From assembly GCA_964464495.1 (NCBI GenBank), contig CAYXGI010000009.1, positions 42,498 through 106,497 of the forward strand: DNA of 64,000 nucleotides, in the 5' to 3' direction. The position numbers and the translations under genes are program-made. Positions 35,002 to 60,411 of the stretch are shown here, piece after piece (the first letter of the stretch is position 1; the number at the start of each line of letters is the position of its first letter). This DNA comes from an uncultured Phycisphaerales bacterium. Its GTDB lineage: Bacteria; Planctomycetota; B15-G4; CAYZWU01. The notes below the pieces were generated by a model that worked only from the letters and a program-made list of their open reading frames with translations, ran no database searches and had not been told where the DNA came from.

Positions 35002-35015
35002 GGCCGATCCGACTA

Positions 35016-43823: not shown

Positions 43824-45113
43824 ATGCGCCTACTAGAAGCGGACAGAAGTCTCGAACTGCTCGAAGAGAACCGAAAGAGACTCGACGAAGTCACCTTCGA
43901 ACTTCTGAACACCTATGAACACCTCGCCGCGATCTATGAACTGGCGGCACGTTTGTCAAATACACGGTCGATCAGCGACGCGGCCCGGCTGACACTCTCC
44001 TCTGCCGTGAACGTGTCCGAATCGACAGGCGGCGTAATCATCATTCCGCGCCACGGCGTGATGGAGACCATTGCGGGTCTCTATTCGACCAAAGAGATCG
44101 AAGACTATGCCCAACTGAAAGCCAAGCAGCACCTCAACGAGTGCCGGTACGAGGACAAGGTGCAGCAAAGGATCTCAGCGCACGACGGACGCTTTCTGTC
44201 GAGTACTCTCTACATACCCCTCGCCGTCGGTGGAAGACGGGACGGCATTCTGTTCCTCTTTTCCACGAAACAGAAATCCTACTCGAGCGTGGACGTGAAG
44301 ATCACGCGCGTCCTCGCCGGCCAGGCAGCACTCGCTGTCAAGAACCTCGTCATGCTCGATGAACTCGAGGAGAAGAACGCGCGCCTGTCCGAGGCTCTGA
44401 GAGACCTCGGGACCGTCCAGAACGAGCTCATCCGATCGGAGCGCTTCTCGGCCCTCGGTGAGATGTCGAGCATGATCGTTCACGACATCAAGAATCCGAT
44501 GAGCGGGCTTCAGGGTTACGCCCAACTGCTTTATGCCACTGCAGAGTCCGTCCTTCCCGACCAGGTGCGGGAGTACTCCGGCCTGATCATCCAGGAAATG
44601 AGGAGGCTCTCCGGCCTGACCGAGGAAATACTGGATTTTTCGCGGGGAGTGGACAGCAAACTCAACCTCAGAAAAATGGAACCGCGCGACGTGGTCAACA
44701 CAGCCTGGCCCCTGCTCAAATCGGACCTCGAAAGCCACGGCATGACGATGGTCAGGGGAAATCTCGAAACCCAAAAAAAGGTCAGAGTCGATTCCGACAA
44801 GATGGAGCGTGTTCTGATCAATCTTGCTGTGAACGCACGGCAAGCCATGGGATCGGGCGGCTGTCTGACTGTTTCGATTCACGAGACCGACAAGTGGGTG
44901 GAGATTTCCTTCAAGGATACAGGCACGGGAATCCCTGAGGACCGTGTCAATGAGATCTTCGATCCCTTTGTGACGCGAAAGCGGGGGCAGAGTCTCGGCA
45001 TCGGCCTGGCCATGTCCCGCTGGATCGTTCATTCTCACGAAGGGGATGTTCTACTCGCCGAAACCGGTACCGACGGCACCAGAATGGTGGTCAGGCTGCC
45101 GGCAGTGACATGA
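43824..45113 (+). CDS. cytoplasmic GAF-domain sensor histidine kinase
   Basis: Start at the internal Met (MRLLEADRSLELLE). GAF-like N-terminal region. HisKA H-box SALGEMSSMIVHDIKNPMSGL. HATPase_c motifs (NLAVNARQAM, DTGTGIP, GQSLGIGLAMS). No TM segment. Confidence 0.8.
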   Translation: MRLLEADRSLELLEENRKRLDEVTFELLNTYEHLAAIYELAARLSNTRSISDAARLTLSSAVNVSESTGGVIIIPRHGVMETIAGLYSTKEIEDYAQLKAKQHLNECRYEDKVQQRISAHDGRFLSSTLYIPLAVGGRRDGILFLFSTKQKSYSSVDVKITRVLAGQAALAVKNLVMLDELEEKNARLSEALRDLGTVQNELIRSERFSALGEMSSMIVHDIKNPMSGLQGYAQLLYATAESVLPDQVREYSGLIIQEMRRLSGLTEEILDFSRGVDSKLNLRKMEPRDVVNTAWPLLKSDLESHGMTMVRGNLETQKKVRVDSDKMERVLINLAVNARQAMGSGGCLTVSIHETDKWVEISFKDTGTGIPEDRVNEIFDPFVTRKRGQSLGIGLAMSRWIVHSHEGDVLLAETGTDGTRMVVRLPAVT

Positions 45114-45125
45114 TGGTTGGAGAGA

Positions 45126-45667
45126 CGATGGGCAGGAGCGGATTCACTCTCATAGAATTGCTGATCGTGGTGATCATACTGGCCATTCTGGCCGGGATCG
45201 TCATTCCTCAGTTTAGAGCCAATATCGACGACGTGAAGATGGCGAGTGTCGAAACCAATGTGGAAGTGGTCCGCAAGGCGATCGAGATCTACCACACGGA
45301 CCATGGCGGGACCTTTCCGGGCCATCCTGACGGCGACACTTCGCTCAGCCCGACCGAAGGGGTTCTCATCAACCAGCTTCTTCTCAAAACCGACAAGCGC
45401 GGCGTCATCGATCCGGGCGGAACTTGTGGACCATACCTCAGAGCGCAAGCCGGATTTTTCCCCATCAATCCCTTCAACAAGAAAGCCGCAGTCGCGGTCT
45501 ACATGAGAAGCGGCGAGGTGCCGACCGTTGACAGTGAGTTCGGGTGGTACTACATCGCGTCAACGGGCGACTTCAATGGCGTAACCCCTGAATCCGCTGA
45601 GACTCCGGAGACACCGCCCGCCGACATGCCTCCTGGCCGCGGCCGGCGTCCAGAGGGCAGCCTCTGA
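45126..45667 (+). CDS. GspG-like major pseudopilin / type IV pilin (prepilin N-terminal methylation domain)
   Basis: MGRSG|FTLIELLIVVIILAILAGIVIPQF class III signal. GGAGAG RBS 4-5 nt upstream. An alternative start lies at 45110 (ATGA overlap with the kinase stop). Pro/Glu-rich C-terminal tail. Confidence 0.8.
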
Positions 45668-45860
45668 TCGTGTGATCGCGCAGCGTCAGGTGCGCGGCCG
45701 AGTTTCAGAATCCTTGTGGTCCCCACATGCTCGGCGTGATCGATCTTTTTTTTACTCTCGATTAAATTTCCCCAATCCCGGTGCCGATAAGCAACTAATG
45801 ATGAACATACTTTAATACGCCGACGATGGAGACAGTCTGTTCGGGATAAGGAGAAAGGAA

Positions 45861-46337
45861 ATGAATATGCATCGTAAGGAAGGTTTTACACTGGTTGAAC
45901 TCTTGATCGTGGTCATCATTCTCGGGATTCTGGCCGCAGTCGTGATTCCGCAGTTCGGAAGCGCGTCTCTGGAAGCCAAGGAATCAGCGCTGATGACCAA
46001 TCTCGCCGCTGTGCGCGGAGCGATCGACCTCTACCGGATCCAGCACCTGGAGGTGTTTCCAGGGGATCTGAGCGGCGTCGTGAGCTGGGCTAACTTCGAG
46101 ACGCAGATGACAGCGCAAACCGACGTCGATGGCGCCGCGGGCACAGACTATGGTCCGTATCTCAGAACCGGTATTCCGCGCAATCCGATCAACGGGTTCA
46201 ACACGGGCACCGAAGGTGCGATCCCCGGGGCTCCTGATGGACTCACGGGATGGTACTACGACCAGTCGACAGGCGAGCTCCGGGCGAATGCGGCCGGAAC
46301 CGGCCCTTCGACCGGGATCGACTATTTCGACATGTAA
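45861..46337 (+). CDS. GspG-like major pseudopilin / type IV pilin
   Basis: MNMHRKEG|FTLVELLIVVIILGILAAVVIPQF. AAGGAGA RBS. 158 aa. Confidence 0.8.
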   Translation: MNMHRKEGFTLVELLIVVIILGILAAVVIPQFGSASLEAKESALMTNLAAVRGAIDLYRIQHLEVFPGDLSGVVSWANFETQMTAQTDVDGAAGTDYGPYLRTGIPRNPINGFNTGTEGAIPGAPDGLTGWYYDQSTGELRANAAGTGPSTGIDYFDM

Positions 46338-46467
46338 GACAGTCATGGGACGGATGAAGCGAGGGTGAGGTGGGACGGCTCCTCGAGGCGAGATGCTCTC
46401 GGGGAGCTGTTTCATGCCGCCAACAACACTGACCGGGAAGGGGGCGAACGTCGGGGAGACGTGAGCG

Positions 46468-47010
46468 ATGGGAAATACCGGATCGAAAAGCAGGCCGGCA
46501 ACTCATAATGCCGGACAGACACTCACGGGGAAGAACCGAAACGGTTTCACACTCGTTGAAGTCATGATTGCCGTGGTGGTCGTCGGTATCGGCGTCGCCG
46601 CATCGCTTTTCGGCATGGGAACCAGCGTGATCAACGCAGACGCCGGCCGCGACGTGCTCGTCGCGGGGATCCTCTCCGACTACATCTGGCAGTATTCAGA
46701 AGAGCTCGAATTCTGGGATCCTCAAGAGAACGAGAATTTCGGGATCGAGACGGACGAAAACGGTTTCGACGACTACGACGACATCGACGATCTTCACGGA
46801 CAGGTCATATCCCCACCCGTGGGCGCAGACGGTGAAATTCTGACATCATTCCCGAACTGGACTCAAGAGATCACCGTTGCCGGACTCGATCCGGTCTCTT
46901 TCCTGGCGCTCGTCAATCCAGGGGTCACTCCTGTCCGCAGAGTGCGGGTCACCATCCTGAAAGCCGACAGGGAGGTGGAGAGTTACGAGTGGATCGTGAC
47001 GAGACTGTGA
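46468..47010 (+). CDS. minor pseudopilin (GspI-like)
   Basis: GFTLVEVMIAVVVVGIGVAASLF prepilin helix, preceded by an unusually long N-terminal leader in the ORF-track model; the true start may be later. 180 aa. Acidic mid-region. Confidence 0.65.
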   Translation: MGNTGSKSRPATHNAGQTLTGKNRNGFTLVEVMIAVVVVGIGVAASLFGMGTSVINADAGRDVLVAGILSDYIWQYSEELEFWDPQENENFGIETDENGFDDYDDIDDLHGQVISPPVGADGEILTSFPNWTQEITVAGLDPVSFLALVNPGVTPVRRVRVTILKADREVESYEWIVTRL

Positions 47011-47017
47011 GGCGATT

Positions 47018-48145
47018 ATGAAAAGAGCATGTGAAAAAGACAGATCTTTCCTTCAGAGGGGAACGATTCTGGTCCCCTGCCTGTTCATGCTCACTCTCAT
47101 CTCCATGATCACTCTCGGAATCCTTAACGTGGGCGGTGTGGGAGCGAACATCTCAGCGGCGCTGGCCCAGAAATCCCAGGCGGAACTCGTCGCCACATCG
47201 GGCCTCGAGATCGGTTACCGAAGGCTGTGCGAGGATCTCAACTATTCGGGCGAGTCCTGCTTGCCGCTTTCGATCCCCGCGTCGTCTGTCGAGATCTCGG
47301 TTCTGCCGCTGGCCAACAACGAGTACGAGATCACTTCGCTGGGGCGGGCGCGCGATGCAGAGCGGCTGCTCAGGACCAAGGTCCAGGGCAGGCAGTGGGT
47401 TTACAACTATCCTCTCTCCGTGGGCGGCGATCTGGGGCTCTGGGGATCGGCGAAAATCCTGGGCGATTGCTACGTGACCGGTGCCATCCGCGGTGGGAGC
47501 CCGGCTTTCATCGCCGGCGACCTCCACCTTCCCGGAGACAGGGATATCCAGTACGACGTGTACGGAAATCCCACGCGTGTCGATGGCTACGTCATTTCGG
47601 GAATCGAAGGAAACATTCACACCTATGCGCGGGCTCTCGATTTTCCCGGGATCTCGCTTGCGGCGCTGCGCGAACAGGCGATCGCCGCCGGCCAGCTCTA
47701 CTCGGGAGCTGTCTTCCTCGAGAATCAGGTCTTTGACGGTGTTGTCTACATCGAGAACACCTATCTGACTCCGGTTCTCTCGAACGTGGTGATCAACGGA
47801 ACCCTGGTCTGCGAAGACGTCTGGATCCTGAGCGTGGGCAACGGCTTCCTGAAGGTCCGCTGCAACGAGGGTGTTTGCGCCAATGTGGCGGTTATCGCCC
47901 CGGAGACCTGTTTTGCCGTCGGGGTCAACGCCGAGGTTGATCTCTACGGACTCAGCTTCTTCGGTGCGGGGCATTTCTTCGGCAAAGGGACTTTTACCGG
48001 CCCTCTCGTCATCTGGAACACCCTGGTGACCTACGGCGGATCGTCCCTCTGCTGTCAGTTTCCCGCGGTACTCAAGGACTTCATCTATTCCAACCTGATG
48101 TGGTCCGAACACAGTATCAAAGAGTTGGAGTTCGAGGTTCAGTGA
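47018..48145 (+). CDS. minor pilin-like protein (PilX/GspK-like N-terminus) with beta-helix-like C-terminal region
   Basis: N-terminus RSFLQRGTILVPCLFMLTLISMITLGILNV resembles the PilX_N/GspK hydrophobic segment. The C-terminal ~250 aa show ~20-25 aa periodic G/V/I-rich repeats (VISGIEGN, VFLENQVFDGVVYIENTY, VVINGTLVCEDVWILSVGNG) suggestive of a beta-solenoid. Confidence 0.6.
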   Translation: MKRACEKDRSFLQRGTILVPCLFMLTLISMITLGILNVGGVGANISAALAQKSQAELVATSGLEIGYRRLCEDLNYSGESCLPLSIPASSVEISVLPLANNEYEITSLGRARDAERLLRTKVQGRQWVYNYPLSVGGDLGLWGSAKILGDCYVTGAIRGGSPAFIAGDLHLPGDRDIQYDVYGNPTRVDGYVISGIEGNIHTYARALDFPGISLAALREQAIAAGQLYSGAVFLENQVFDGVVYIENTYLTPVLSNVVINGTLVCEDVWILSVGNGFLKVRCNEGVCANVAVIAPETCFAVGVNAEVDLYGLSFFGAGHFFGKGTFTGPLVIWNTLVTYGGSSLCCQFPAVLKDFIYSNLMWSEHSIKELEFEVQ

Positions 48146-48609
48146 AAACTAATCGCGACGCATTCACGCTGGTTGAGTTGATGGTGACGATTGTCATCCT
48201 TGCCGTTCTGGGAGGCATTGTGGTCACGGCGACAGTCGACACGGTGAGCACCAAGGCGGAAATCAACTCACGTGAAATCAAGAGTGCCATTCGCTATGCC
48301 AAGGTTTTCGCTCTTTCCCAGCGGTGCGCACACAGGATCATCTTCGATTCGGGCAGCAACGCGATCAGGGTCGAAGACGACGCCGGTAATGTCGCCTGGA
48401 ATCCGGTGACCTACTCGCCCTACGAGTGGACACTCGCCCACGGCACGATCGGGTCTGTCGATTTCGACGGCGGCAACTTTCTGGAATTCGGCACCTCGGG
48501 TGAGGGCGAGTCGGGCGGCAGCTTTGAAGTCGCCTACAACGGATTGACCCAGACCTTCACGGTCTCGCCGATCACGGGGCGTGTCGCCCTCGAGGAGGTG
48601 AGAAATTGA
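48142..48609 (+). CDS. minor pseudopilin (GspH/FimT-like)
   Basis: GTG start overlapping the previous stop (GTGA). DAFTLVELMVTIVILAVLGGIVV prepilin helix. ~155 aa. Confidence 0.7.
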   Translation: MKTNRDAFTLVELMVTIVILAVLGGIVVTATVDTVSTKAEINSREIKSAIRYAKVFALSQRCAHRIIFDSGSNAIRVEDDAGNVAWNPVTYSPYEWTLAHGTIGSVDFDGGNFLEFGTSGEGESGGSFEVAYNGLTQTFTVSPITGRVALEEVRN

Positions 48610-51397: not shown

Positions 51398-51402
51398 GAG
51401 AG

Positions 51403-51936: not shown

Positions 51937-52514
51937 GTCCCGTGGGATTGAAGGTAGATAATCTCAAAAACACGCTCAAAAAGGAACAGAAGAAGGTCGC
52001 CTTTTTGGTCGCGCTCGCAGCGGTTTTTCTCTACGTCTGGATCCCTCTCATGAAGGGATCCGATCCGGTTCCGAATCCAGCGGCGGCCAACCTCAATCCA
52101 AAAGCCACGGCGAAAAGCCGGACAGGCAAGGCGGGGCGCGAAGCAACTCCGCCCGTGACGGAGAAAGAACGAAAAGTCACCTATCCCGCATTCCTGAAAA
52201 AACCCCTTCCGGCAGTGATGCTGCCAAGAAATCCATTCCTCTCGTTGGCCGACGAAACCCCACCCGAACCGGAACCTGTCGCAGTGGAAGAGACCAACAC
52301 CGAGGAAGAGGCCCTCAAGGCGACTGAAAAGGCGCGGGCCGAGAAGATGGTCATCACATCGACAATGCTCTCCGGTCGCAACCCGTCGTGCGTGGTCGAC
52401 GGACTCGTTCTGGTTAAGGGATCCGAATATAACGGTTTCAAGGTCAAGAAGATAAGCGAGTTCGGCGTCGTCTTCGTGGGTGAATACGGCGCGTATCAGG
52501 TCACGATACGTTAA
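51933..52514 (+). CDS. PilP/GspC-like periplasmic assembly protein
   Basis: N-terminal TM (VAFLVALAAVFLYVWIPLM), Pro/Glu-rich linker, C-terminal small beta domain (GLVLVKGSEYNGFKVKKISEFGVVF). Immediately precedes the secretin. Confidence 0.5.
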   Translation: MSPVGLKVDNLKNTLKKEQKKVAFLVALAAVFLYVWIPLMKGSDPVPNPAAANLNPKATAKSRTGKAGREATPPVTEKERKVTYPAFLKKPLPAVMLPRNPFLSLADETPPEPEPVAVEETNTEEEALKATEKARAEKMVITSTMLSGRNPSCVVDGLVLVKGSEYNGFKVKKISEFGVVFVGEYGAYQVTIR

Positions 52515-52591: not shown

Positions 52592-54316
52592 ATGTGCAGC
52601 AAAAAGTGCATTGTTTTCTGGTCGACTCTGGCAGCGCTTGTTATCTGGTCGTCGACGCTTTGCGCTCAAGATGAGCCTCCCGTGGAAGAACCGGTGATCG
52701 AGGCCACGATCCTCGAATTGGAAGTCGATGATGAAGAGATCGAGATGGGCGAGGGGATCTTCCTCAACGCCCCCTCGGCCGATATCCGCGCTCTGCTACA
52801 GCAGATTTCCCAGTCGGAGCGGATCAACATCGTTGCCGCCGGTGATGTGGAAGGCAGCGTGTCGGTCAACCTCTACGGCGCGACAGTCGACCAGGCCCTC
52901 GAGGCGATCCTCTCTCCGCAGGGTTACGGCTACGTGCGCAAGGGCAACTTCATCTACGTCATGAAATTGGACGAGCTCGGCGCGTTCGGTGTGAGCCAGG
53001 GACGCCTCGAAACAAAGATCTATATCCTCAACTACCTCTCCATCGACGACGCGAAGGAACTGCTCCCCCTTTATCTCTCCGACGATGGAGAGATGAAGCT
53101 CTGTAAGGAGTCGGAAGCGGGTATTCCCACGGGCGACACCGAAACCGGGGGCGAGTCGAACGCGTCCAACAATCTCATCGTGATCAAGGATTTTCCCGAC
53201 GTCCACCGCAACCTCGCCGAGGCGCTCATGGTTCTCGACGCTCCTCCGAGGCAGGTCTTGGTCGAAGCCACGATCGTCGAGGTCACTCTCGACGACACGA
53301 ACCGTCTCGGTGTGAATTTCACCGCCCTCGGCGGAGTTGATTTCGCCGATCTGGACCCCTCCACCACGTCGGACCTCAGGGGTATCACGCCCGGCGATGC
53401 CGGGGCAGGATCGATCGACGCAGGATTCAACGCTTTCGGGACGCGCGGTTTCTTATCGCCCCAATCCGATCAGGGATTCTCCTTCGGAATCCTGAAGAGC
53501 GATCTCGCTATTTTCCTCGATGCTCTGGAGAGCGTGACCGACACGAACGTCCTGGCCAATCCCAAGATCCTCGCGTTGAACCGACAGCGGGCGGAGTTCA
53601 TCAGTGGCGGCCGGTTGGGATATTTCGGCAGCGAGACCTTGAGCGACGGCGGATTTTCCCAGCAGGAGGTCGAATTCCTCGACGTGGGAACGCAACTCAG
53701 GTTTCGCGCTTTCATCGGCGCCGACGACTTCGTCAGGATGGAGATTCATCCCGAGCGGTCGGACGGCGTGGTCGATTCCGTCACCGGCCTGCCCTCTGAG
53801 ACCACCTCCGAGGTGACGACCAACATTCTCGTCAGGAACGGCGACACCGTGGTCATCGGCGGCATGATCGAGGAGAGAGACACGTCGACCGTCTCCCAGG
53901 TTCCGCTCCTCGGATCGATCCCGATCATCGGATGGCTCTTCAAGAAGGAAGAAACGTCCACCCGTCGCGTGGAGATCATCATTATGATCACCCCCAAGAT
54001 CATCGATCCCTATTCCCAGGACGACGAGGCCGAGGAGATGCTCGCCGGGTTCAAGGAACGCAAGAAGGCGTTCCGCCACGGATTCAAATTTTACACGCGC
54101 ACGGTGAGAGCCGAGTGCCACAGGGAGAGAGCGCGCCACGCCATCGAGGACGGCAAGTACGGGCACGCCGGTTTTCATCTCGGCTGGGCGCTGAGTCTCG
54201 ATCCCAATGTTTCCGAAGCCCACGAGCTCAAAGCGCAGCTCGAGGCCCTCAATGCGGCAAGTGAACCGCAAGAGGATACGCTGGAAGAATATATCTGGAG
54301 CAGTGAAATCAAATGA
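52592..54316 (+). CDS. secretin (GspD/PilQ family)
   Basis: Signal peptide MCSKKCIVFWSTLAALVIWSSTLCA. N-domains, then the secretin core (VLANPKILALNRQRAEFISGG...TTNILVRNGDTVVIGGM...VPLLGSIPIIGWLFKKEETSTRRVEIIIMITPKII). The ORF-track start at 52547 is also possible. Confidence 0.85.
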   Translation: MCSKKCIVFWSTLAALVIWSSTLCAQDEPPVEEPVIEATILELEVDDEEIEMGEGIFLNAPSADIRALLQQISQSERINIVAAGDVEGSVSVNLYGATVDQALEAILSPQGYGYVRKGNFIYVMKLDELGAFGVSQGRLETKIYILNYLSIDDAKELLPLYLSDDGEMKLCKESEAGIPTGDTETGGESNASNNLIVIKDFPDVHRNLAEALMVLDAPPRQVLVEATIVEVTLDDTNRLGVNFTALGGVDFADLDPSTTSDLRGITPGDAGAGSIDAGFNAFGTRGFLSPQSDQGFSFGILKSDLAIFLDALESVTDTNVLANPKILALNRQRAEFISGGRLGYFGSETLSDGGFSQQEVEFLDVGTQLRFRAFIGADDFVRMEIHPERSDGVVDSVTGLPSETTSEVTTNILVRNGDTVVIGGMIEERDTSTVSQVPLLGSIPIIGWLFKKEETSTRRVEIIIMITPKIIDPYSQDDEAEEMLAGFKERKKAFRHGFKFYTRTVRAECHRERARHAIEDGKYGHAGFHLGWALSLDPNVSEAHELKAQLEALNAASEPQEDTLEEYIWSSEIK

Positions 54317-55446
54317 TACCCTTCAAGGAGAAGAATCGAGGCCGGAATCGGGCGCCCCTGTTCGCGGGCGCCCTTCTGCTGTTTCTGATCTCGGCCGCGG
54401 GATGCGTTTCGGTCGAATCCGATCCGAAGGGAGAACACGATTCGTCCTTCGACTACGCTCTCGTGAACTTTCATTACAAGATGGCCGAAAAATTCTGGAA
54501 CCAGGGCAAGGAGGATCTGGCGGTCAAGTATCTCCACAAAGCCGTGGTCGGCGATCCGACCGCCCTCGAACCGAGGCTTGGACTCATCGACATCCACGTG
54601 GCCAGAGGCAGCGTCGATGAGGCGCTGACGACGATCGACAGCTTTCCCGAGGAGATGAAGTACGATTCCGAAGTGCTCGATCGCCTCCTCTACATTCTCG
54701 AACTCAAAGGCGACGACGAGGCGGCCGCCCGTGTGATCGCCGAGGCTCAGGATCGCGAGGTCCCGACGGCGCGGTTCTTGAAGACGCGGGCCGAGGCACG
54801 CGTTTTTCGGAACGATTTTGCCACGGCCCTGAAATTCTACGAGCGGGCGCGCAGGGATTTCCCCCAGGACACCGCCCTGCTCGAAGCGATGTCGGCACTT
54901 TACGGCCTCATGGGACGGGAGGCGCAAAGAGCCGAGATCCTCGTCGATCTCATCGCTCTTCTTCCGGAGAGAACCGACTTTCCGATCGAGGCGGCGCGTG
55001 CCTTTGAAAAGGCCGGGCGCCCGAAGGAAGGAATCGTCCAGCTCGAGTCGCTGATTCTCGGCGAGGGCAGGATGGTCCGCGGCGACGTCTGCCAGGGGCT
55101 CGGGTATCTCTATATCCGCGAGGAGCGCTGGCAGCACGCCTGCGAGATCTATGAGCGGGCTCGCGTGCGGGGGGACGCCGTCCTGACCTTGGAGGAGAGG
55201 AAAAGTCTTGCCGAGACCTATCTCAGAAACGGTGAAAACGTCAAGGCCGCGGCCGAACTGCAGGACCTCGTGCTGCGGCAGCCGGAAGATCCCGTGACGC
55301 GCGCCGCGCTCGCTCTCGCCTACTGGCGCATGGGCCACGTTGAGCGCGCCGAGGAGATAGTCAAGGGCGCCGGTGCGGGAACGAAAGAGGGGACCGTTCT
55401 TGGCGCGGTGGAGAATAAGATAAGAGGAGGAAAGAGCGTTGACTAG
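54313..55446 (+). CDS. TPR-repeat lipoprotein (PilF/PilW-like candidate secretin pilotin)
   Basis: Lipobox LISAAGC. Multiple TPR-like hairpins (FWNQGKEDLAVKYLHKAVVGDP, ALKFYERARRDFPQD, YERARVRGDAVLTLEERK). 4-bp overlap with the secretin stop. Confidence 0.7.
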   Translation: MIPFKEKNRGRNRAPLFAGALLLFLISAAGCVSVESDPKGEHDSSFDYALVNFHYKMAEKFWNQGKEDLAVKYLHKAVVGDPTALEPRLGLIDIHVARGSVDEALTTIDSFPEEMKYDSEVLDRLLYILELKGDDEAAARVIAEAQDREVPTARFLKTRAEARVFRNDFATALKFYERARRDFPQDTALLEAMSALYGLMGREAQRAEILVDLIALLPERTDFPIEAARAFEKAGRPKEGIVQLESLILGEGRMVRGDVCQGLGYLYIREERWQHACEIYERARVRGDAVLTLEERKSLAETYLRNGENVKAAAELQDLVLRQPEDPVTRAALALAYWRMGHVERAEEIVKGAGAGTKEGTVLGAVENKIRGGKSVD

Positions 55447-56845
55447 CAGACAGGGAGTGATTCCGGCGGGCGCCTACTTTGTGGGTATAGCCATGGTTGC
55501 AGCCGGCACCGCGCTCTCCTTTCAGGCTTCGGGGACGGCCGGAATGCCGGTCGTGCTCGCCGCCGCGGGGGTTGCGCTTCTACTCGTGGCGATCCCCTTG
55601 TTCAACAGCCGTTTTCTCAAGCCGATCAGGAAACTCAAGTGTGAGGCCGAGCGCTTCGCCAGCGCCTGTCTCGACGGAGGCGCGCGCCGCGGCGAGACCA
55701 TCGCAGATGTGGCGCACAGCCTCGAAGCGATCCAGGCGGAGCTTTCCGAGAGCCGGCTGAAGACAAAGGAACTCGAGTCGACGGTCAACGTCTTCATGGC
55801 CGAGAAGCAGCAGACCGAGGCGATTCTCAAGTCTCTGCCGAGCCCCGTACTGGTGACCGACCGGTTCGAGGATCTGCTCCTCGCCAACGATGTGGCGGGC
55901 CGGCTTTTTGGATTCGATTCCATGGAAAGCCGCGGGAAGCCGCTGTCTGAAATCCTCGAATTCGATCTTCTCGTCAACCTCATTCGCGAGACATCGGCGA
56001 GCAAGCTCAAGGTGCCGCGACGCACCGTCGAGGTCAGCTACAAGACCGCTGACGGAGAGCTGGTCGAACTGCGGGCGTGTCTCTCGAGTATCATCGACCC
56101 TTCGGGCCAGATCCTCGGCGTGGTGACCATCATCCAGGACATCACCAAGGACAAGGAGATCGACAGGATGAAATCGGAGTTCGTGGCCAACGTGTCCCAC
56201 GAACTCAAGACACCACTTTCTTCGATACAGGCCTACGTGGAGATGCTCGTCGATGGGGAGGCACCGGACGAAGAAACGCGCCAGAGCTTCTACTCGATCG
56301 TCGACTCGGAAACCAAACGTCTCAGCTCGATGATCGAAAACCTCCTCAATCTCTCCAGGCTGGAAGCCGGCGTCATACAGCTCGAAAAGGACCGGGTCGC
56401 TCTGCACAAGGTGCTGGAGGAGGTGACACAGGTCATCACCCCTCACATGGAACGGAAGAGCCAGAAGCTGGAGACCGAAATTTCTCCCTATCTTGTTCCC
56501 GTGGCGGGCGACAAGGCCTACCTCTCGCGGGTCTTCACTAATCTGCTGTCCAATGCATGCAAGTACACTCCCGAGAAGGGAACAGTCAAGCTCAAGGCGC
56601 GCGTCGAGGGGGACATGGTCCGCGTCGACGTGATCGACACGGGCTATGGAATATCGGCGGAGGAGAAGAAGAAGATCTTCGACAGTTTCTATCGCGTCCA
56701 GGGCGCTGCCAGCAAAGCGCAGGGAACGGGTCTCGGGCTCGCCATCTCACGGAAGATCATCGAGATGCAGAACGGGACGATCAAGGTCGAGTCGGAAACC
56801 GGCAAGGGAAGTTGCTTCACCGTGTCCCTTCCGGCCGCCGAGTGA
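55439..56845 (+). CDS. membrane-bound PAS-domain sensor histidine kinase
   Basis: Two N-terminal TM helices. PAS-like region (LPSPVLVTDRFEDLLLANDVAGRLFGF). HisKA (FVANVSHELKTPLSSIQAY). HATPase_c (NLLSNACKYTP, DTGYGIS, GTGLGLAIS). Possible TTG/GTG/ATG starts between 55439 and 55493. Confidence 0.85.
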   Translation: MTSRQGVIPAGAYFVGIAMVAAGTALSFQASGTAGMPVVLAAAGVALLLVAIPLFNSRFLKPIRKLKCEAERFASACLDGGARRGETIADVAHSLEAIQAELSESRLKTKELESTVNVFMAEKQQTEAILKSLPSPVLVTDRFEDLLLANDVAGRLFGFDSMESRGKPLSEILEFDLLVNLIRETSASKLKVPRRTVEVSYKTADGELVELRACLSSIIDPSGQILGVVTIIQDITKDKEIDRMKSEFVANVSHELKTPLSSIQAYVEMLVDGEAPDEETRQSFYSIVDSETKRLSSMIENLLNLSRLEAGVIQLEKDRVALHKVLEEVTQVITPHMERKSQKLETEISPYLVPVAGDKAYLSRVFTNLLSNACKYTPEKGTVKLKARVEGDMVRVDVIDTGYGISAEEKKKIFDSFYRVQGAASKAQGTGLGLAISRKIIEMQNGTIKVESETGKGSCFTVSLPAAE

Positions 56846-56861
56846 GGCGAGGAGGCGCGAA

Positions 56862-57149
56862 TTGGGAGTGAAAACCGTTCTCATCGTCGATGACGAGTTC
56901 CACATCGTGAACGCGTTGGCCCTGAAATTTCGAAGCTCGAACTTCTTTGTGGTCACCGCCGGCAACGGCCGGGAAGCCCTGCAGAGAATCGGTGAATCGA
57001 AACCCGATCTCGTGATCACCGCACGGGAACAGGACTTCGACGAAGCATCCGGGGGGAAGGTGGACGTCGATGCTTTCGTGAGCAAACCCTTCAGTCCGCG
57101 AGCGATGGTGTCGCAGTCGAGGAAATTGATCGGAGCGCGCCATGAGTGA
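56862..57149 (+). CDS. single-domain response-regulator receiver protein (divergent)
   Basis: TTG/GTG start after the kinase stop. VKTVLIVDDEFHIVNALALKF...DLVITA...KPF receiver-domain hallmarks but an atypical acidic-pocket region. ~95 aa. No output domain. Confidence 0.55.
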   Translation: MGVKTVLIVDDEFHIVNALALKFRSSNFFVVTAGNGREALQRIGESKPDLVITAREQDFDEASGGKVDVDAFVSKPFSPRAMVSQSRKLIGARHE

Positions 57150-57492
57150 TCTGAGCAGCGTTACGAATCTCGAGAGCGTCGTCAAGGCCGAGATCATCGA
57201 GCTCGAGGAGGAATATCTCTCCAGGAACACTCAGGCCTTCACCGAGAGCGTGACCGACGCGATCGAGCGGGGACGCCGACTCATCGTGGTCGACTGCCAC
57301 AGGTGTAAAAGTGTCGACTCGGCGAGCCTCGAGAGTCTGCTGTGGGCGATCGAGGAGATCCAGGACAGGGGAGGCCTCATGAAGATCGCCTGCCTCAACG
57401 ACACGATGAAAAAGGTCTTCGAAATCACGCAGTTCGACAGGATTTTCGAAGTTTACGACGACGTGCTCTATGCCGTCAAAGCCTTTGCCTAG
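57142..57492 (+). CDS. STAS-domain protein (anti-sigma-factor antagonist, SpoIIAA-like)
   Basis: 116 aa. LIVVDCHRCKSVDSASLESLLWAIEEIQDRGGLMKIACLNDTMKKVFEITQFDRIFEVY matches STAS/anti-anti-sigma topology with a conserved Ser (SVDSAS). Confidence 0.7.
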   Translation: MSDLSSVTNLESVVKAEIIELEEEYLSRNTQAFTESVTDAIERGRRLIVVDCHRCKSVDSASLESLLWAIEEIQDRGGLMKIACLNDTMKKVFEITQFDRIFEVYDDVLYAVKAFA

Positions 57493-57508
57493 GAGGACGT
57501 ACCGAGGA

Positions 57509-59221
57509 ATGGAGACTGTCGCGCCGCATCAGACAAACCTTGGGGAAACGCTCGTCAGGAAAGGGATTCTCACTCCCGATCAGCTCGAGCTCGCTCTGGT
57601 CGAGAAGGAAAAAGTTCCCTTCGAGAAACTGGCCGAAACCCTGAAGAGGCTCGAACTCATCGAGGAGGAAGAGCTTCTCGCCGTCATGGCGGAGCAGAAC
57701 GGTATCCCCTATCTCAAGATCGAGAAGGGGCTCTACGATCCTGATGTTTTCGGCGTCCTTCCCAAGGAATTCATCGAGAGCAACCTCGTGCTGCCCCTCT
57801 TCAAGATCCGCGACACGCTGACCATGGCGGTCCCGGAGCCGCTCAATATCTTTCTCATGGACTCGCTGAAGAGGCTCTCGGGCCTCAACGTGAATATCGC
57901 GCTTGCCAGTCCCGAGGACCTGGCGCGGGCGATCCGGCAGATCGGCGACTGCAAGAAGGCCTTTCTCGTCGACGATATCATCGAGAACATTCGCGAGGAC
58001 GACATCAAGGTCGTGGAGCGCGAGGTCGACGACATCGACCAGATCGAGGCTGCGGCCGGGCTCTCACCCGTGGTGCGTCTCGTCAACTTCATCATCTACA
58101 AGGGGATCAACGAGGGCGCTTCCGACGTCCATATCGAACCGGACGAGGGGATGCTGCGCGTGCGTTACCGCGTGGACGGAATTCTCAGGGAAGGCATGAG
58201 GCCGCCCGTCCAGCTCCAGTCGGCGGTCGTTTCGAGAATCAAGATCATGTCCGACCTTGACATCGCCCAGCGCCGTATCCCCCAGGACGGCAGGATGCAG
58301 GTCATGATGAACAACCGGCTCATCGACCTGCGTATCTCGATCCTGCCGACCTTTCACGGCGAAAAGGTGGTCATCAGGATTCTCGACAAAGACTCGGCGC
58401 TCAAGGGACTGGACAAGCTCGGTTTCGGGATCGAGACGCTCGAGGAATTTTCGAAGCTGATCATCAAACCGAACGGCATCATCCTCGTGACCGGCCCCAC
58501 GGGAAGCGGCAAGACGACCACGCTCTACTCGAGCCTCCAGACGATCAACTCGGTCGACAAGAATATCAGCACCGTGGAAAATCCGATCGAATACAACCTC
58601 AAATTCGTGAACCAGGTTCAGATCAACGAAAAAGCGGGCCTCACCTTTGCCGGTTCGTTCCGCTCCCTTCTCCGGCAGGACCCGGACATCATTCTTGTCG
58701 GCGAGATCCGCGACAAGGAAACGGCCCAGATCGCTGTCCAGGCCGCCCTGACAGGCCACCTCGTTCTGTCGACCCTGCACACGAACGACAGTCTCGGCGT
58801 GGTGACGCGACTGATCAACATGGGCGTCGAGCCCTTTCTGATCTCGTCTTCCCTGTCGGCGGCGCTCGCCCAGAGGCTGGTGCGGAAGATCTGTCCCGCC
58901 TGCCGCGAACAGATTCCGGTCACGTCCATCGTCACCCGTCTTTTCAAGAAACACGATCTCGATGTGGAGACGGTTTACGAGGGCAGGGGCTGCTCCAAGT
59001 GCGGCCGAACAGGATACGCCGGCCGAGTCGGCGTCTACGAACTCCTGACCGTCGACGATGATCTGCGCGACCTCATCGTCACGTCCCCGGCGATCAGCGA
59101 GCTGCGGGACTACGCGCGGTCTCACAACTTGAAAAGTCTGCGCTACGATGCGCTTCGAAAAGTGCGCGAAGGTTTGACTACCGTCGATGAGGTTACCCGT
59201 ATCAGTGAGGATACGTTCTGA
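57509..59221 (+). CDS. type II secretion / type IV pilus assembly ATPase (GspE/PilB family)
   Basis: AGGAGG RBS, ATG 57509. N-terminal GSPII_E_N domain. Walker A GPTGSGKTTTLYS, Asp box, Walker B, His box. Tetracysteine motif CPACR...CSKCGRTGY. Confidence 0.9.
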   Translation: METVAPHQTNLGETLVRKGILTPDQLELALVEKEKVPFEKLAETLKRLELIEEEELLAVMAEQNGIPYLKIEKGLYDPDVFGVLPKEFIESNLVLPLFKIRDTLTMAVPEPLNIFLMDSLKRLSGLNVNIALASPEDLARAIRQIGDCKKAFLVDDIIENIREDDIKVVEREVDDIDQIEAAAGLSPVVRLVNFIIYKGINEGASDVHIEPDEGMLRVRYRVDGILREGMRPPVQLQSAVVSRIKIMSDLDIAQRRIPQDGRMQVMMNNRLIDLRISILPTFHGEKVVIRILDKDSALKGLDKLGFGIETLEEFSKLIIKPNGIILVTGPTGSGKTTTLYSSLQTINSVDKNISTVENPIEYNLKFVNQVQINEKAGLTFAGSFRSLLRQDPDIILVGEIRDKETAQIAVQAALTGHLVLSTLHTNDSLGVVTRLINMGVEPFLISSSLSAALAQRLVRKICPACREQIPVTSIVTRLFKKHDLDVETVYEGRGCSKCGRTGYAGRVGVYELLTVDDDLRDLIVTSPAISELRDYARSHNLKSLRYDALRKVREGLTTVDEVTRISEDTF

Positions 59222-60411
59222 TGAATATGCCTGACACAAACAACCAGAGTGGACTTGGATCTCAGCCGGCCAACGGCCTGGCAACGGATTCGAAATCCCA
59301 GGATCGGCTCTCGCCTCTCACTCCCAAGGTCGACGAGGCCGAGCAGCCCGTGAAGCCAAGTCTTTTCGAAAAGCGCAAGGTGAGCGACAAGGACGTGCTC
59401 TACCTGGTGGACCAGCTGGCCATCATGTTCGAGACGGGCCTCAACCTTCTTCTCGCTCTCGACTGCCTCGCGGTTCAAACCAAGAATCCGGCTTTGAGGC
59501 GTGTCGTGGTCGAGCTCCGGGACGCCATCAAGGAGGGCTCGTCCCTGGCCGACGCCATGTCCAATTTTCCAAAGGTATTCGGTCCGGTCTGCGTCAACAT
59601 GGTCCGCGCCGGTGAGGTGTCGGGCAACATGGACGAGATGCTTCGCCAACTGTCGGAGTATCTCGACAGGGAAATCGAGACACGCAGCCAGATCAAGTCG
59701 GCTCTCAGTTATCCCGTGATCATGCTCTGCATGGCGTTTCTGGTCATCGCCTTTCTGATCATTTACGTTTTTCCCAGGTTCTCGGTCTTCTTCGAGGGGC
59801 ACGAGGAACTTCTTCCGGGGCCGACGAGGATCTTTCTCTGGATCGGAATGACGTGTGAGGCCCACTGGAAATTCATTCTTCCCGGTGTGGTCGCCCTTGG
59901 CGTGGGTGTGTTCTTCGTTTTGAGAGAGCAAAGGGTCAAGGAGATGCTGGACAGGTTCTTCCTTGTCGTGCCCTTTCTCGGAGACCTGATCAGCAAATCG
60001 TCGCTTTCCAGGTCGTTCCACCTGCTCGCCGTGCTGCTTCACGGCGGCATCCCGATCCTGGAGGCGCTGAGGCTGTCCCAGGAAGTGGCCGGTAATGCGA
60101 TCTTTCGGAGGAGCTGGCAGAGGGTCTCCGAAGATCTTCGAAACGGCAAGGACTTCGCGACGCCGTTGAAGGAGAATCCCTACATCCCCATGTCCGAGGT
60201 TCAGATGCTGAGCCTGGGGGAGCGGTCGGGACACCTTTCGACGGTACTCACGAAACTGAGCAAGCACTACGAGAGAGAGATTACTAACGCGATCAGGAGC
60301 CTCATCAAATTCGTGGAGCCCGCTCTGATCATCTGTATGGGATTTCTCGTCGGCCTGATCGTGATGTCCCTGATCCTGCCGATCTTCGCCATCTCCAAAT
60401 GCCAGGGGTGA
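59221..60411 (+). CDS. type II secretion system F-family platform protein (GspF/PilC)
   Basis: 396 aa with two repeats of the T2SSF domain and three TM segments. ATGA overlap with the ATPase gene. Confidence 0.9.
   Translation: MNMPDTNNQSGLGSQPANGLATDSKSQDRLSPLTPKVDEAEQPVKPSLFEKRKVSDKDVLYLVDQLAIMFETGLNLLLALDCLAVQTKNPALRRVVVELRDAIKEGSSLADAMSNFPKVFGPVCVNMVRAGEVSGNMDEMLRQLSEYLDREIETRSQIKSALSYPVIMLCMAFLVIAFLIIYVFPRFSVFFEGHEELLPGPTRIFLWIGMTCEAHWKFILPGVVALGVGVFFVLREQRVKEMLDRFFLVVPFLGDLISKSSLSRSFHLLAVLLHGGIPILEALRLSQEVAGNAIFRRSWQRVSEDLRNGKDFATPLKENPYIPMSEVQMLSLGERSGHLSTVLTKLSKHYEREITNAIRSLIKFVEPALIICMGFLVGLIVMSLILPIFAISKCQG

Follow-up and report, generated by a model that had tools for sequence, protein, structure and literature searches.

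Type IV filament systems whose components give mixed profile matches are already recognized as a "generic" class (PMC6668835). Type IVa pilus (T4aP) systems carry sets of minor pilins homologous to GspH/I/J/K, with an example in Thermus (PMC5131608). MshEN domains bind c-di-GMP (PMC5013675), a preprint reports that response regulators interact with components of the pilus motor, PilB1 among them (bioRxiv 10.1101/2021.06.11.447907; cf. PMC11181946), and the STAS protein HmpV belongs to the hormogonium motility (hmp) system of Nostoc (PMC8256260).

We analyzed a 64,000-nucleotide stretch of DNA (the window) from the genome of an uncultured marine planctomycete (Phycisphaerales, Planctomycetota). 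Domain calls for the ORFs of the cluster come from Pfam or NCBIfam models (Table 1). On balance, and with some reservation, we read these genes as encoding one complete type IV filament machine, apart from its prepilin peptidase, of a family that is common in Planctomycetota.

Table 1. Features of the filament cluster and two distant prepilin genes (positions in the window)
Feature	Position	Strand	Evidence or remarks
Whole cluster	43824-60411	+	17 co-directional ORFs, all present
HK1, cytoplasmic GAF-HisKA-HATPase histidine kinase	43824..45113	+	HisKA 54 bits, HATPase_c 75 bits
pilA1, prepilin G↓FTLIE, 185 aa	45110..45667	+	N_methyl 28.7 bits; Pro-rich C-terminal tail
AT-rich spacer, strong Shine-Dalgarno	45668..45860	+	Read from sequence
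pilA2, prepilin, 158 aa, GspG-like fold	45861..46337	+	Short leader MNMHRKEG↓FTLVE
Minor pilin 1, G↓FTLVE, 180 aa, 26-residue leader	46468..47010	+	N_methyl 35.5 bits
375-aa prepilin-like protein, QRG↓TILVP, without Glu5	47018..48145	+	Weak GspK N-terminal match, E 0.007
Minor pilin 2, A↓FTLVE, ~155 aa, GspH/ComGD-like	48142..48609	+	GTG start, 4-bp overlap
Minor pilin 3, G↓FTLIE, 366 aa	48606..49706	+	N_methyl 26.3 bits
PilM-PilN fusion (PilMN), 564 aa	49703..51397	+	PilM_2 46 bits (cutoff 27); PilN 15.8 bits (cutoff 22.8)
PilO/GspM-like bitopic protein, 177 aa	51403..51936	+	PilO 21.9 bits (cutoff 22), N-terminal TM
Bitopic PilP-position protein	51942..52514	+	N-terminal TM, Pro/Glu-rich linker with RNPF, small C-terminal beta domain
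Secretin	52592..54316	+	Pfam Secretin 145 bits, STN 36 bits
TPR lipoprotein	54313..55446	+	TPR_14 and TPR_19 matches; lipobox-like AAGC in LISAAGC
HK2, membrane-anchored PAS-HisKA-HATPase kinase	55439..56845	+	PAS 49, HisKA 74, HATPase_c 102 bits; N-terminal TMs
Receiver remnant, single-domain, 95 aa	56862..57149	+	Aligned to 124-135 aa orthologs
STAS-only protein, Asp-Ser motif	57142..57492	+	STAS 51 bits; directly upstream of ATPase
PilB-type ATPase, N-terminal MshEN	57509..59221	+	T2SSE 454 bits, MshEN 63 bits
PilC/GspF platform protein	59221..60411	+	T2SSF 208 bits, two repeats
Orphan GspG-type prepilin a	23244-23801	-	N_methyl + T2SSG
Orphan GspG-type prepilin b	25017-25589	-	N_methyl + T2SSG

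The ORFs lie on one strand in the order given by the first-pass annotation. They are tightly packed, but the 4-bp overlaps that it took to predominate occur at only five junctions. Two other junctions overlap by 8 bp and one by 1 bp, five have gaps of 5–16 nt, and the larger gaps are found upstream of pilA2 (193 nt), downstream of pilA2 (130 nt), and upstream of the secretin gene (77 nt). We also confirmed that a prepilin peptidase and a retraction ATPase are missing from the window: tblastn found no second T2SSE-type ATPase and no PilT gene there, and none of the window's ORFs is a polytopic A24-like peptidase (the one further ORF with a polytopic product encodes an MscS channel).

Assembly components

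The assembly genes had been described as T4aP-type, and the ATPase, the secretin, and the PilM part of the fusion protein (above the PilM_2 cutoff) bear this out. In the PDB, the ATPase matches PilB from M. xanthus and Geobacter over the full length (505–515 bits) and GspE over its C-terminal 390–410 amino acids only (420–422 bits); the PilB and GspE models give 602 and 597 bits, each under its own cutoff. In the MshEN domain, motif 1 fits the motif pattern in its relaxed form; motif 2 is degenerate. Cys-x-x-Cys pairs are visible in the ATPase sequence. The secretin comprises a signal peptide, N0/STN, one N domain, the secretin domain, and a tail of ~100 amino acids, which is the N0-N1-secretin architecture of PilQ but without AMIN domains. 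Its top PDB matches are PilQ of Neisseria and Pseudomonas. It spans the PilQ model end to end (208 bits), and its best stretch against the GspD model (214 bits) is limited to residues 204–487. The platform protein is the exception among the machine parts, as it scores slightly higher as GspF (291 bits) than as Myxococcus PilC (257 bits), with both under their cutoffs. Because the subtype-specific NCBIfam models all stay under cutoff, membership in the T4aP group is by best resemblance and not by a curated threshold.

The fusion protein runs from an actin-like PilM domain through a linker, VDFLPEE, and a TM helix to a PilN-type periplasmic domain. D-F-x-P (D365/F366/P368) is invariant, and the PilN-type FLP motif is retained. 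Its topology had been called GspL-like, and the likeness goes no further than topology: the GspL HMM does not match it, and pilM and pilN are separate genes in wider relatives (L010–L014, below). The fusion is specific to this lineage. Its nearest homologs outside its own clade are standalone PilM or PilM+PilN fusions, and other fused homologs exceed both the PilM_2 and the PilN cutoffs.

The PilO identity of the 177-aa protein is borderline (T2SSM_b gives 19.7 bits, cutoff 21.7). The window's PilP-position protein has no Pfam or PDB match, and three of eight aligned position-equivalents, all from wider relatives, match Pfam T2SSB (best E 2e-5). Its position, its topology, and these transitive matches suggest that this 190-aa protein may connect to the secretin (the PilP/GspC role). 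By analogy with PilF/PilW/Tgl, the TPR lipoprotein (41 bits with the PilW model, whose cutoff is 154) may serve the secretin as a pilotin or an assembly factor, and its gene lies directly 3' of the secretin gene in the loci of the window's clade and in L012, L013, and L014.

Pilins

Five proteins of the cluster carry the prepilin N_methyl motif (G/A↓FTL[IV]E). PilA2 is likely the major filament subunit. PilA1 is its paralog (41% identical over the full length) and is 51–56% identical across distant orthologous loci. The spacer upstream of pilA2 is probably its promoter region; a block within it is partly conserved and common to four loci, and it contains no sigma-54 consensus and no Rfam element.

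The family models do not support an earlier description of the cluster pilins as GspG-type. TIGR01710 (GspG) gives 50–53 bits against a cutoff of 88.85, over the N-terminal helix only, and Pfam T2SSG has no match in them. The two distant paralogs that had been noticed on the same contig do exist. They flank an epimerase gene, are 44% identical to each other, and, unlike the cluster pilins, score near or above the T2SSG cutoff (20.2 and 24.0 bits; cutoff 21). They align to PilA1 and PilA2 mostly at the N terminus, including a common GPY[LM] motif, and they are possibly further subunits of the filament.

A minor pilin set resembling GspH/I/J/K had been taken as a T2SS-like trait. This argument fails, since homologous sets occur in T4aP systems (PMC5131608) and HMM support here is confined to the GspH/ComGD-like protein, minor pilin 2 (ComGD E 2.7e-7, model positions 2–120 of 139; GspH E 2.9e-4). 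Pilins with a Pfam GspH match are also found in L010 and L011. The other labels (GspI-like, GspK/PilX-like, and GspJ-like, and also PilP-like) gained no confirmation from HMM or PDB sequence searches. Minor pilin 1 has weak N-terminal matches to PilV, GspH, and GspI only, and its match in a PDB profile search is confined to the helix. The 375-aa protein is a candidate GspK/PilX-type tip subunit: its N terminus is degenerate, with G-T-I-L-V residues that are invariant in four orthologs. It has no Pfam or PDB match, and its single-sequence AF2 model has a pLDDT of 36.5. In minor pilin 3, neither the PDB nor Pfam has a match for the big C-terminal module, in which SVDGGATWDPP resembles an Asp box and the RGGGE tail is conserved.

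Related loci in Planctomycetota

For a wider comparison we used six distant planctomycete loci (L009–L014), whose ATPases are 51–55% identical to the window's. All six keep the receiver-STAS-ATPase-platform module. Four have the longer order kinase-receiver-HD-GYP-STAS-ATPase-platform, with HD-GYP, a c-di-GMP phosphodiesterase, encoded just before STAS; loss of the HD-GYP gene is specific to the window's lineage. Unfused pilM and pilN are present in five of the six (L010–L014), four of which also have pilO and the secretin gene. In L011–L014, the order pilM-pilN-pilO-x-secretin precedes the motor module, and L012–L014 have the TPR gene and the PAS kinase as well. L010 has pilM-pilN downstream of the motor module, and L009 has the motor module only. 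The layout, sensor genes included, is thus a trimmed version of one that recurs in Planctomycetota and is normal for the phylum. The locus had been presented as a mosaic unlike canonical layouts, but given this recurrence and the known systems with mixed matches (PMC6668835), it is not odd.

Nature of the machine

In the reading that we favor, a peptidase encoded elsewhere would cleave the prepilins, and the minor pilins would then start off a filament whose main subunit is PilA2. Subunits would be taken from the inner membrane and inserted by the ATPase and the platform, a motor that would be linked to the secretin through PilMN, the PilO-like protein, and the bitopic PilP-position protein. 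The filament would exit via the secretin as a surface fibre. We favor adhesion or substrate capture as its role.

The cluster could instead be a T2SS in function, with PilA1/PilA2 forming a short periplasmic endopilus that drives folded exoproteins through the secretin, PilM/N/O in the GspL/GspM roles, and the 190-aa protein as GspC/GspB. The fold of PilA2 is nearest to EpsG and PulG, it has no Cys and hence no Cys pair, and no other protein of the locus is as conserved (53–88% identical among the best 120 of 1515 homologs). A periplasmic (T2SS-like) endopilus would be expected to have a GspG-like fold, to lack a disulfide, and to show stronger conservation of its major subunit than of the ATPase, and these traits count against a surface fibre. 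The GPY[LM] motif that PilA1 and PilA2 have in common with the T2SSG-positive orphan prepilins, the GspL topology of the fusion, the platform's top score as GspF, the T2SSB matches of the relatives' PilP-position proteins, and the lack of a PilT gene in the window point the same way. We nevertheless consider secretion improbable, though it deserves serious weight, because the GspL, GspC, and GspM HMMs all fall short of threshold, the N terminus of the ATPase is of the PilB/MshE type and not a GspE N1 domain, and the secretin has the short N0-N1 of PilQ and not N0-N3. Also, pilM and pilN are separate in relatives, the cluster pilins fail the GspG HMMs, and minor pilins as large and modular as those of 366 and 375 aa suit a surface tip more than a piston.

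A DNA-uptake (competence) pilus with short filaments, as in the T4aP systems of Thermus or Vibrio, is very unlikely, as ComEA, ComEC, and DprA are absent in or beside the cluster in all locus tables examined. Finally, the mixed best HMM matches (GspG/GspF/GspD versus PilB/PilM/PilQ) might suggest a recent chimera of gsp and pil operons, formed by recombination or horizontal transfer. We give this almost no credence: GC content is even along the cluster (0.56–0.61), at 42% PilMN identity the genes still stand in the same order, with HEAT and ChaN genes on the flanks, and distant Planctomycetota show the core order again. The mixed matches are also all below the family cutoffs. Such matches are expected if, as we assume, a deep-branching lineage is being scored with models of mostly proteobacterial make-up.

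Regulatory genes

The kinase, receiver, and STAS genes are built into the locus, as the first-pass annotation proposed. They are embedded via overlaps or 16-nt gaps and are syntenic across the phylum, and therefore they are not independent insertions. To call them a partner-switching module was an overstatement, since the STAS protein stands alone: neither the cluster genes nor the gene tables of related loci include an RsbW-type kinase or a PP2C phosphatase. The DS motif of STAS is invariant across eight loci, and STAS and the ATPase are adjacent in all six of the distant loci examined. The supposed receiver-only response regulator does have a single receiver domain, but in this strain it is a remnant from which a 31-residue in-frame deletion has taken out the phospho-acceptor Asp and a conserved Thr. 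L001 and L002, which are independent assemblies, both have this same deletion, and the Asp/Thr/Lys residues are conserved in relatives.

The cluster encodes two histidine kinases and no DNA-binding output, and conserved gene order suggests that control would act on the motor, post-translationally rather than transcriptionally. The MshEN domains, the motor-interacting response regulators, and HmpV cited at the outset are precedents for such control. The ancestral path would likely have run from kinase to receiver, to the HD-GYP and STAS proteins, and on to the PilB N-domain. Because this lineage has neither the HD-GYP gene nor an intact MshEN motif 2, and the receiver of this strain has lost its Asp as well, the input path seems partly decayed or rewired. 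Judging from gene order, the receiver and STAS proteins may feed onto the ATPase, and STAS would be the remaining candidate modulator of the motor in this lineage. HK2 is syntenic in L012, L013, and L014, and a kinase without a PAS call occupies that spot in L009 and L011. HK1 has no TM segment, its GAF_2 score is 28.3 bits (cutoff 28.6), and the end of its gene overlaps pilA1 by 4 bp; a GAF kinase gene adjoins the pilin genes in L010 too.

A tightly packed cluster of filament genes

The first-pass annotation had given a gene order for a type IV filament system, and this order was confirmed: 17 co-directional genes lie on the plus strand between 43824 and 60411. Among their products, Pfam and NCBIfam identify two histidine kinases, one with a GAF and one with a PAS domain, as well as a receiver (REC), a STAS protein, and five proteins with prepilin motifs. 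PilM_2 matches a 564-aa protein (46 bits, cutoff 27) whose C-terminal region is PilN-like (PilMN). The secretin carries an N0/STN domain, a TPR protein has a lipobox-like sequence, the T2SSE ATPase has an MshEN domain, and the platform protein is of the T2SSF family. There is little space between the genes. Their junctions include five 4-bp, two 8-bp, and one 1-bp overlaps and five gaps of 5–16 nt; longer spacers precede pilA2 (193 nt), follow pilA2 (130 nt), and precede the secretin gene (77 nt).

As the first-pass annotation had also stated, the window has no retraction ATPase and no prepilin peptidase: in the 64 kb, we found no second T2SSE-type ATPase and no polytopic peptidase candidate. 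There were no Rfam elements, including c-di-GMP riboswitches, in 43000–61000, and no sigma-54 consensus near the pilin genes. Promoter-like sites were no more frequent than expected by chance, and most terminator-like sites fell within genes, so these scans were uninformative. The PilMN protein is present in the assembly collection; for the ATPase protein with the longer ORF start (57470), no exact record was found there.

Features of the window discussed in the text, in order of position
Feature	Position	Strand	Description
831-aa protein	18576-21071	-	six CarboxypepD_reg-like domains
Orphan prepilin	23244-23801	-
Orphan prepilin	25017-25589	-
Phosphodiesterase	32445-33296	-	class-II cAMP phosphodiesterase-like
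Channel	33400-35001	+	MscS with cNMP-binding domain
Cyclase	36730-39066	-	CHASE2-adenylate/guanylate cyclase
HEAT-repeat protein	41860-43512		upstream flank
GAF kinase	from 43824	+
pilA1	45110-45667	+	prepilin
pilA2 upstream spacer	45668-45860
pilA2	45861-46337	+	prepilin
pilA2 downstream spacer	46338-46467		weak hairpin at 46395-46407
Minor pilin 1	from 46468	+
375-aa protein	47018-48145	+	candidate cap
Minor pilin 2	48142-48609	+	GspH/ComGD-like
366-aa pilin (minor pilin 3)	48606-49706	+	large C-terminal module
PilMN	49703-51397	+	PilM-PilN fusion
PilO-like protein		+
190-aa protein	51942-52514	+	PilP position
Secretin		+
TPR protein		+
PAS kinase	from 55439	+
Receiver (REC)	56862-57149	+
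STAS protein	from 57142	+
ATPase	from 57509	+
Platform protein	from 59221	+
ChaN/haem-binding-like protein	60457-62076	-	downstream flank

Most machine parts resemble those of type IVa pili

The assembly genes had been described as like those of a type IVa pilus (T4aP), and by best resemblance this held: the ATPase, the secretin, and PilMN are closest to PilB, PilQ, and PilM/PilN. All of the subtype-specific NCBIfam scores were under the curated cutoffs. The T4aP-type classification is thus a putative one, made by best resemblance rather than by curated cutoffs.

The ATPase scored 601.8 bits as PilB (cutoff 675.65) and 597 bits as GspE, which is also under the cutoff. Among solved structures, it matched PilB from Myxococcus and Geobacter over its full length (residues 9–566 of the query; 505–515 bits) and GspE over the C-terminal 390–410 residues only (from residue 156–179 onward; 420–422 bits). 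Its N-terminus is PilB-like and lacks a GspE-type N1E domain. Similarly, the secretin spans the NCBIfam model of PilQ from end to end (208.2 bits versus a cutoff of 284.35), and its best matches in the PDB are PilQ of Neisseria and Pseudomonas, across N0-N1-secretin (residues 65–487). GspD aligns to it only from residue 151–204 onward, and the N0-N3 arrangement of GspD was not seen. Neither the PilB nor the PilQ match reaches the curated equivalog or subfamily score; both are the best full-length resemblances. No protein of the cluster matched an HMM for GspL or GspC, and the GspM-type matches were under their cutoffs (T2SSM_b, 19.7 bits versus 21.7; XpsM, E = 0.017).

PilMN carries both the PilM and the PilN of a T4aP in one protein; the PilN part scores 15.8 bits, under the cutoff of 22.8. 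Just before its transmembrane helix is an invariant D-F-x-P (within VDFLPEE), which we take to be the counterpart of PilN's INLLP-type N-terminal peptide, the one that binds PilM. A profile search across 1.84 billion representative proteins found a close clade of fused PilMN proteins with about nine clusters; outside this clade, the matches were mostly standalone PilM, with scattered PilM+PilN fusions. Six of the seven fusions that we tested exceed both Pfam cutoffs. Together, this spread and these scores indicate that the PilM-PilN fusion is a recurring minority form that is GspL-like in topology only. The fusion itself had been recognized in the first-pass annotation and stands, with PilM_2 above its cutoff; the likeness to GspL extends to topology and not to family. 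Identity with GspL was rejected because there is no GspL match and the relatives are of the PilM_2 and PilN types.

The PilO-like protein is borderline PilO/GspM-like (21.9 bits versus a PilO cutoff of 22). In the position of PilP, there is a 190-aa bitopic protein with an RNPF motif and a small C-terminal beta domain, which is a putative connector to the secretin. It had no HMM match and no match in the PDB, including with profiles of four and eight sequences; three of the eight aligned equivalents, all from wider relatives, match T2SSB in Pfam. The exception to the T4aP likeness is the platform protein: its score as GspF (291 bits) is slightly above that as Myxococcus PilC (257 bits), with both scores under the cutoffs.

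Pilins

PilA1 and PilA2 are paralogs (41% identical) that match known pilins over the N-terminal helix only: Geobacter PilA-N is best, followed by GspG, MshA, and PilE. The first-pass annotation had called them "GspG-type", which seems to hold at the level of the fold and is supported by a shared GPYL motif, but does not hold for family membership. Against the GspG model TIGR01710, they score 50–53 bits (cutoff 88.85) over just the N-terminal 65–70 residues, and Pfam's T2SSG (PF08334) gives no match at E ≤ 0.1.

PilA2 looks like the major subunit, given its own AT-rich upstream spacer with a strong Shine-Dalgarno sequence, its conservation, and the size of its family. No other protein of the locus is as conserved (72–78% identity, versus 69–72% for the ATPase and 42% for PilMN), and its family has 1515 homologs, mostly of about 155 aa. 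The best 120 of these 1515 are 53–88% identical over nearly the full length, and those with a named source are from planctomycetes. PilA2 has no cysteine and PilA1 has one, which does not fit the variable, disulfide-bonded C-terminal region of a T4aP major pilin. In the spacers around pilA2, we found no Rfam family and no sigma-54 consensus; an upstream block (TAAAT...CCGrTGnCGATAA) is partly conserved in four loci, and a weak hairpin follows the gene.

A set of GspH/I/J/K-like minor pilins had been taken to look T2SS-like, where T2SS is the type II secretion system. Only the GspH-like call has HMM support: minor pilin 2 is GspH/ComGD-like, and Pfam's GspH matches pilins in two distant loci (L010 and L011). 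The GspI, GspJ, and GspK labels have none. In any case, such a set is no argument for a T2SS, because it is common to T4aP and T2SS, as in Thermus (PMC5131608). Minor pilin 2 has Ala rather than Gly at the -1 position of the predicted prepilin cleavage site (RDA/FTLVE).

Two of the minor subunits are large. The 375-aa protein has a conserved G/TILV N-terminus without Glu5 and a weak match to the N-terminus of GspK, which fits a candidate GspK/PilX-type cap. None of its orthologs, all of which we scanned with Pfam, matched a family, and a single-sequence AlphaFold model has a pLDDT of 36.5. In L004/L007, the ortholog (7181–8350) is called as two genes (311 and 75 aa) and, when aligned, lacks about 80 C-terminal residues; either a frameshift or a true truncation could explain this. 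The 366-aa pilin has a large C-terminal module with an Asp-box-like sequence (SVDGGATWDPP) and a conserved C-terminal RGGGE, and we found no relatives of the module in Pfam or the PDB. For both of these large subunits, and likewise for minor pilins 1 and 2, PDB sequence and profile searches gave matches to the N-terminal helix or chance matches only.

The two further prepilin genes that had been reported about 20 kb away are present. Unlike the cluster's pilins, they reach or approach the Pfam threshold for T2SSG (20–24 bits). They are 44% identical to each other, and a gene for a NAD-dependent epimerase lies between them.

Sensory genes beside the motor

The TPR and PAS kinase genes overlap by 8 bp, the kinase is 16 nt from the receiver gene, the receiver and STAS genes overlap by 8 bp, and another 16 nt separates STAS from the ATPase gene. 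The REC-STAS-ATPase order holds across Planctomycetota (in six distant loci). By this packing and this phylum-wide order, the sensory genes are part of the filament system. There is no DNA-binding output among them; with no sigma-54 promoter consensus either, this points to control that would act on the motor, post-translationally.

The STAS protein (51 bits) has an Asp-Ser that is invariant in eight loci. Its Ser presumably aligns with that of the Asp-Ser in a reference sequence of SpoIIAA from B. subtilis, and by this alignment the protein has the phosphorylatable Ser of a STAS antagonist in partner switching. We found no RsbW-type kinase or PP2C phosphatase in Pfam scans of the cluster's genes (about 30 ORFs of the window were scanned) or in the gene tables of the related loci; HATPase_c_2 appears only as a sub-threshold match on PAS kinases. 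With the STAS protein in place but neither partner seen, the partner-switching module that the first-pass annotation described is not established.

A receiver-only response regulator had also been described. The REC gene is there, but an in-frame deletion of 31 residues (between DLVIT and A) has removed the phospho-acceptor Asp and the conserved Thr, so the window's copy lacks the site expected of a phosphorelay receiver. The deletion is found in two independent metagenome assemblies and is absent from a relative that is 86% identical and from all other loci. In relatives L004, L006, and L008–L012, the receivers are intact, with Asp, Thr, and Lys present.

The MshEN motif that binds c-di-GMP consists of two tandem 24-residue repeats of RLGxx(L/V/I)(L/V/I)xxG(L/V/I)(L/V/I)xxxxLxxxLxxQ (PMC5013675). 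In the ATPase, motif 1 (NLGETLVRKGILTPDQLELALVEK) matches a relaxed version of this pattern. Motif 2 (KLAETLKRLELIEEEELLAVMAEQ), compared by eye, misses three positions of the pattern, including both Gly. The window's domain scores 36.3 bits against NF053729 (cutoff 38), and the motifs of the relatives are nearer to the consensus.

The gene order recurs across Planctomycetota

The window's PilMN is identical to a protein on two ENA metagenome scaffolds (L001 and L002), and its nearest relatives in a species-level genome collection are from three uncultured Phycisphaerales genomes. Within the close clade, PilMN identity falls to 42%, yet all of the genes stay in the same order, among them both kinases, REC, STAS, and the two neighbors that encode HEAT-repeat and ChaN-like proteins. 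These two genes flank the cluster throughout the clade, a pattern that suggests a stable place in the chromosome and not a mobile island.

We chose six more distant loci (L009–L014) by ATPase homologs with 51–55% identity and read their gene neighborhoods. They come from Phycisphaerales, Planctomycetaceae, and one bin labelled Anaerolineaceae, among others. REC and STAS are upstream of the ATPase and platform genes in all six, and in four (L009, L012, L013, and L014), an HD-GYP gene lies between REC and STAS. These HD-GYP genes are of the HD_5 type, often with HDOD or GAF; the window's clade has none. L012–L014 have the order pilM, pilN, pilO, a gene for 198–318 aa without assignment, secretin, TPR, PAS kinase, REC, HD-GYP, STAS, ATPase, and platform, which is the order seen in the window, with pilM and pilN unfused. 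L011 has a similar order, without TPR and HD-GYP and with two unassigned genes after pilO. In L010, the motor module lies upstream of the pilin genes as well as of pilM and pilN, which are separate, and L009 has the motor module only.

From these gene orders, the machine in the window is a lineage-specific trim of a layout that is common in planctomycetes, with PilM and PilN fused, HD-GYP lost, and the receiver damaged. The view of the cluster as an odd mosaic was not borne out: the order recurs in distant loci, and mixed systems are already recognized as "generic" (PMC6668835). In that survey (Denise et al. 2019), 884 of 9,026 systems fit no specific model, and the class can include chimeric profile hits. 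For this window, the result is mostly careful annotation.

A surface fibre or an endopilus

Given the observed parts list, subtype resemblances, synteny, and receiver deletion, the system might work as follows. The minor pilins would prime a filament of PilA2, which the PilB-type ATPase and the platform protein would polymerise. PilMN, the PilO-like protein, and the bitopic connector would link this motor to the PilQ-type secretin, and the TPR lipoprotein may assist in assembling the secretin. Signals from the PAS and GAF kinases would pass to the receiver, then (in relatives) to HD-GYP and c-di-GMP, and then to STAS and the motor. We lean towards this working as a whole, with a surface fibre as its product, because most of the machine parts are T4aP-type and because two of the minor subunits are large and modular.

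A T2SS-like endopilus is the strongest alternative. The major subunit, which is GspG-like, disulfide-free, and very conserved, speaks for it; set against the T4aP-type machine parts, we consider it clearly the less probable reading, though one to take seriously. A competence pilus, a label that the T4aP of Thermus also bears, seems improbable. That the mixture is a recent horizontal chimera is more improbable still, as the even GC content and the deep synteny argue against it.

As for the control of the motor, c-di-GMP is suggested by the MshEN domain and by how often an HD-GYP gene is present. It is possible, though we consider it doubtful, that STAS and the receiver (with HD-GYP in most relatives) are a dedicated post-translational regulator of the PilB-type motor that is conserved across Planctomycetota. 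Such a module would bind the MshEN N-domain or PilM/PilC and so toggle filament assembly. In the incomplete set of papers that we searched, we did not find the conserved REC-(HD-GYP)-STAS-pilB-pilC order, and for a link of STAS or HD-GYP to PilB, or for planctomycete pilus genetics, we found analogies only.

Comparison with known systems

Among known systems, the T4aP machine of Myxococcus xanthus and Pseudomonas aeruginosa comes closest, and among known subunits, GspG. Shared with the T4aP are the PilB-type ATPase (full-length similarity, with an MshEN-type N-terminus), the PilM, PilN, and PilO-like alignment proteins, the PilQ-like N0-N1-secretin layout, a TPR lipoprotein (compare Tgl/PilF), and a minor pilin set. 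As in the window, pil clusters may include histidine kinase genes, such as pilS/pilR in Myxococcus. Unlike in the T4aP, PilM and PilN are one polypeptide; the PilP position is taken by a bitopic protein instead of a lipoprotein, without a match to the PilP HMM; the secretin has no AMIN domains; the major pilin is GspG-like, highly conserved, and free of disulfides; no PilT, PilR, or sigma-54 promoter was found in the window; and REC-only and STAS proteins take the place of a transcriptional regulator.

The T2SS (Gsp/Eps/Pul) shares the probable fold of the major subunit, the GspL-like topology of PilMN, a protein of the PilO/GspM superfamily, the GspF-like platform score, the lack of a nearby retraction ATPase, a GspH/ComGD-like minor pilin, and a GspK-like N-terminus without Glu5. 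It differs in that the window has no match above threshold to GspC, GspL, or GspM, an ATPase N-domain that is not GspE-type, a short secretin, pilins that fail both TIGR01710 and PF08334, and a TPR lipoprotein and two-component genes in the locus. The distinction between pilus and secretion system fails here, with highly conserved subunits of a probably GspG-like fold on machinery of the PilB/M/N/O/Q type.

There is a precedent for pseudopilin-like folds on T4aP machinery: the T4aP/competence pilus of Thermus thermophilus has a T4aP-type machine and minor pilins that are structurally closest to T2SS pseudopilins (PMC5131608). Thermus belongs to a different phylum. Its ATPase, PilF, has three MshEN/GSPII domains, and we know of no REC-STAS module in Thermus. 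The pilus-like cluster of Akkermansia (Amuc_1098-1102), also from the PVC superphylum, is only a remote relative, since the scores are far under the cutoffs: PilMN weakly matches the 608-position model of PilM-like Amuc_1101 (46 versus 650) and the secretin that of Amuc_1098 (62 versus 750).

For the motor regulators, there are partial precedents. The MshEN domain of the ATPase recalls c-di-GMP sensing by MshE/PilB (PMC5013675). In cyanobacteria, response regulators are reported to act on the pilus motor, including PilB1 (bioRxiv 10.1101/2021.06.11.447907; see also PMC11181946); in the window, a receiver is encoded with the motor. So is a STAS-only protein, and HmpU/V/W partner switching in Nostoc is a precedent for STAS proteins in pilus-dependent motility (PMC8256260). 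The window's relatives add an HD-GYP phosphodiesterase to this likeness. Unlike those systems, the window has no PATAN domain, and neither an RsbW-type kinase nor a PP2C phosphatase was seen. Its lineage has a degenerate MshEN motif 2, and the receiver is crippled in this strain.

Planctomycete fibres have been described (PMC5394234), and a 2025 review of Planctomycetota states that the players in fibre-mediated uptake of macromolecules are still unknown (PMC12673574). This cluster family is one candidate for the pilus-like fibres. The conserved REC-(HD-GYP)-STAS-pilB-pilC order leads to a testable hypothesis of a new way of controlling the assembly ATPase; if true, STAS, the receiver, and HD-GYP would be a motor-control module not yet described for any type IV filament system.

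Elsewhere in the window, the 831-aa protein looks like a large protein of the surface or adhesin type. A few kb upstream of the cluster (32445–39066) is a group of cyclic-nucleotide genes, for a phosphodiesterase, a channel, and a cyclase; in the contig with P0005, too, the cyclase lies upstream of the cluster.
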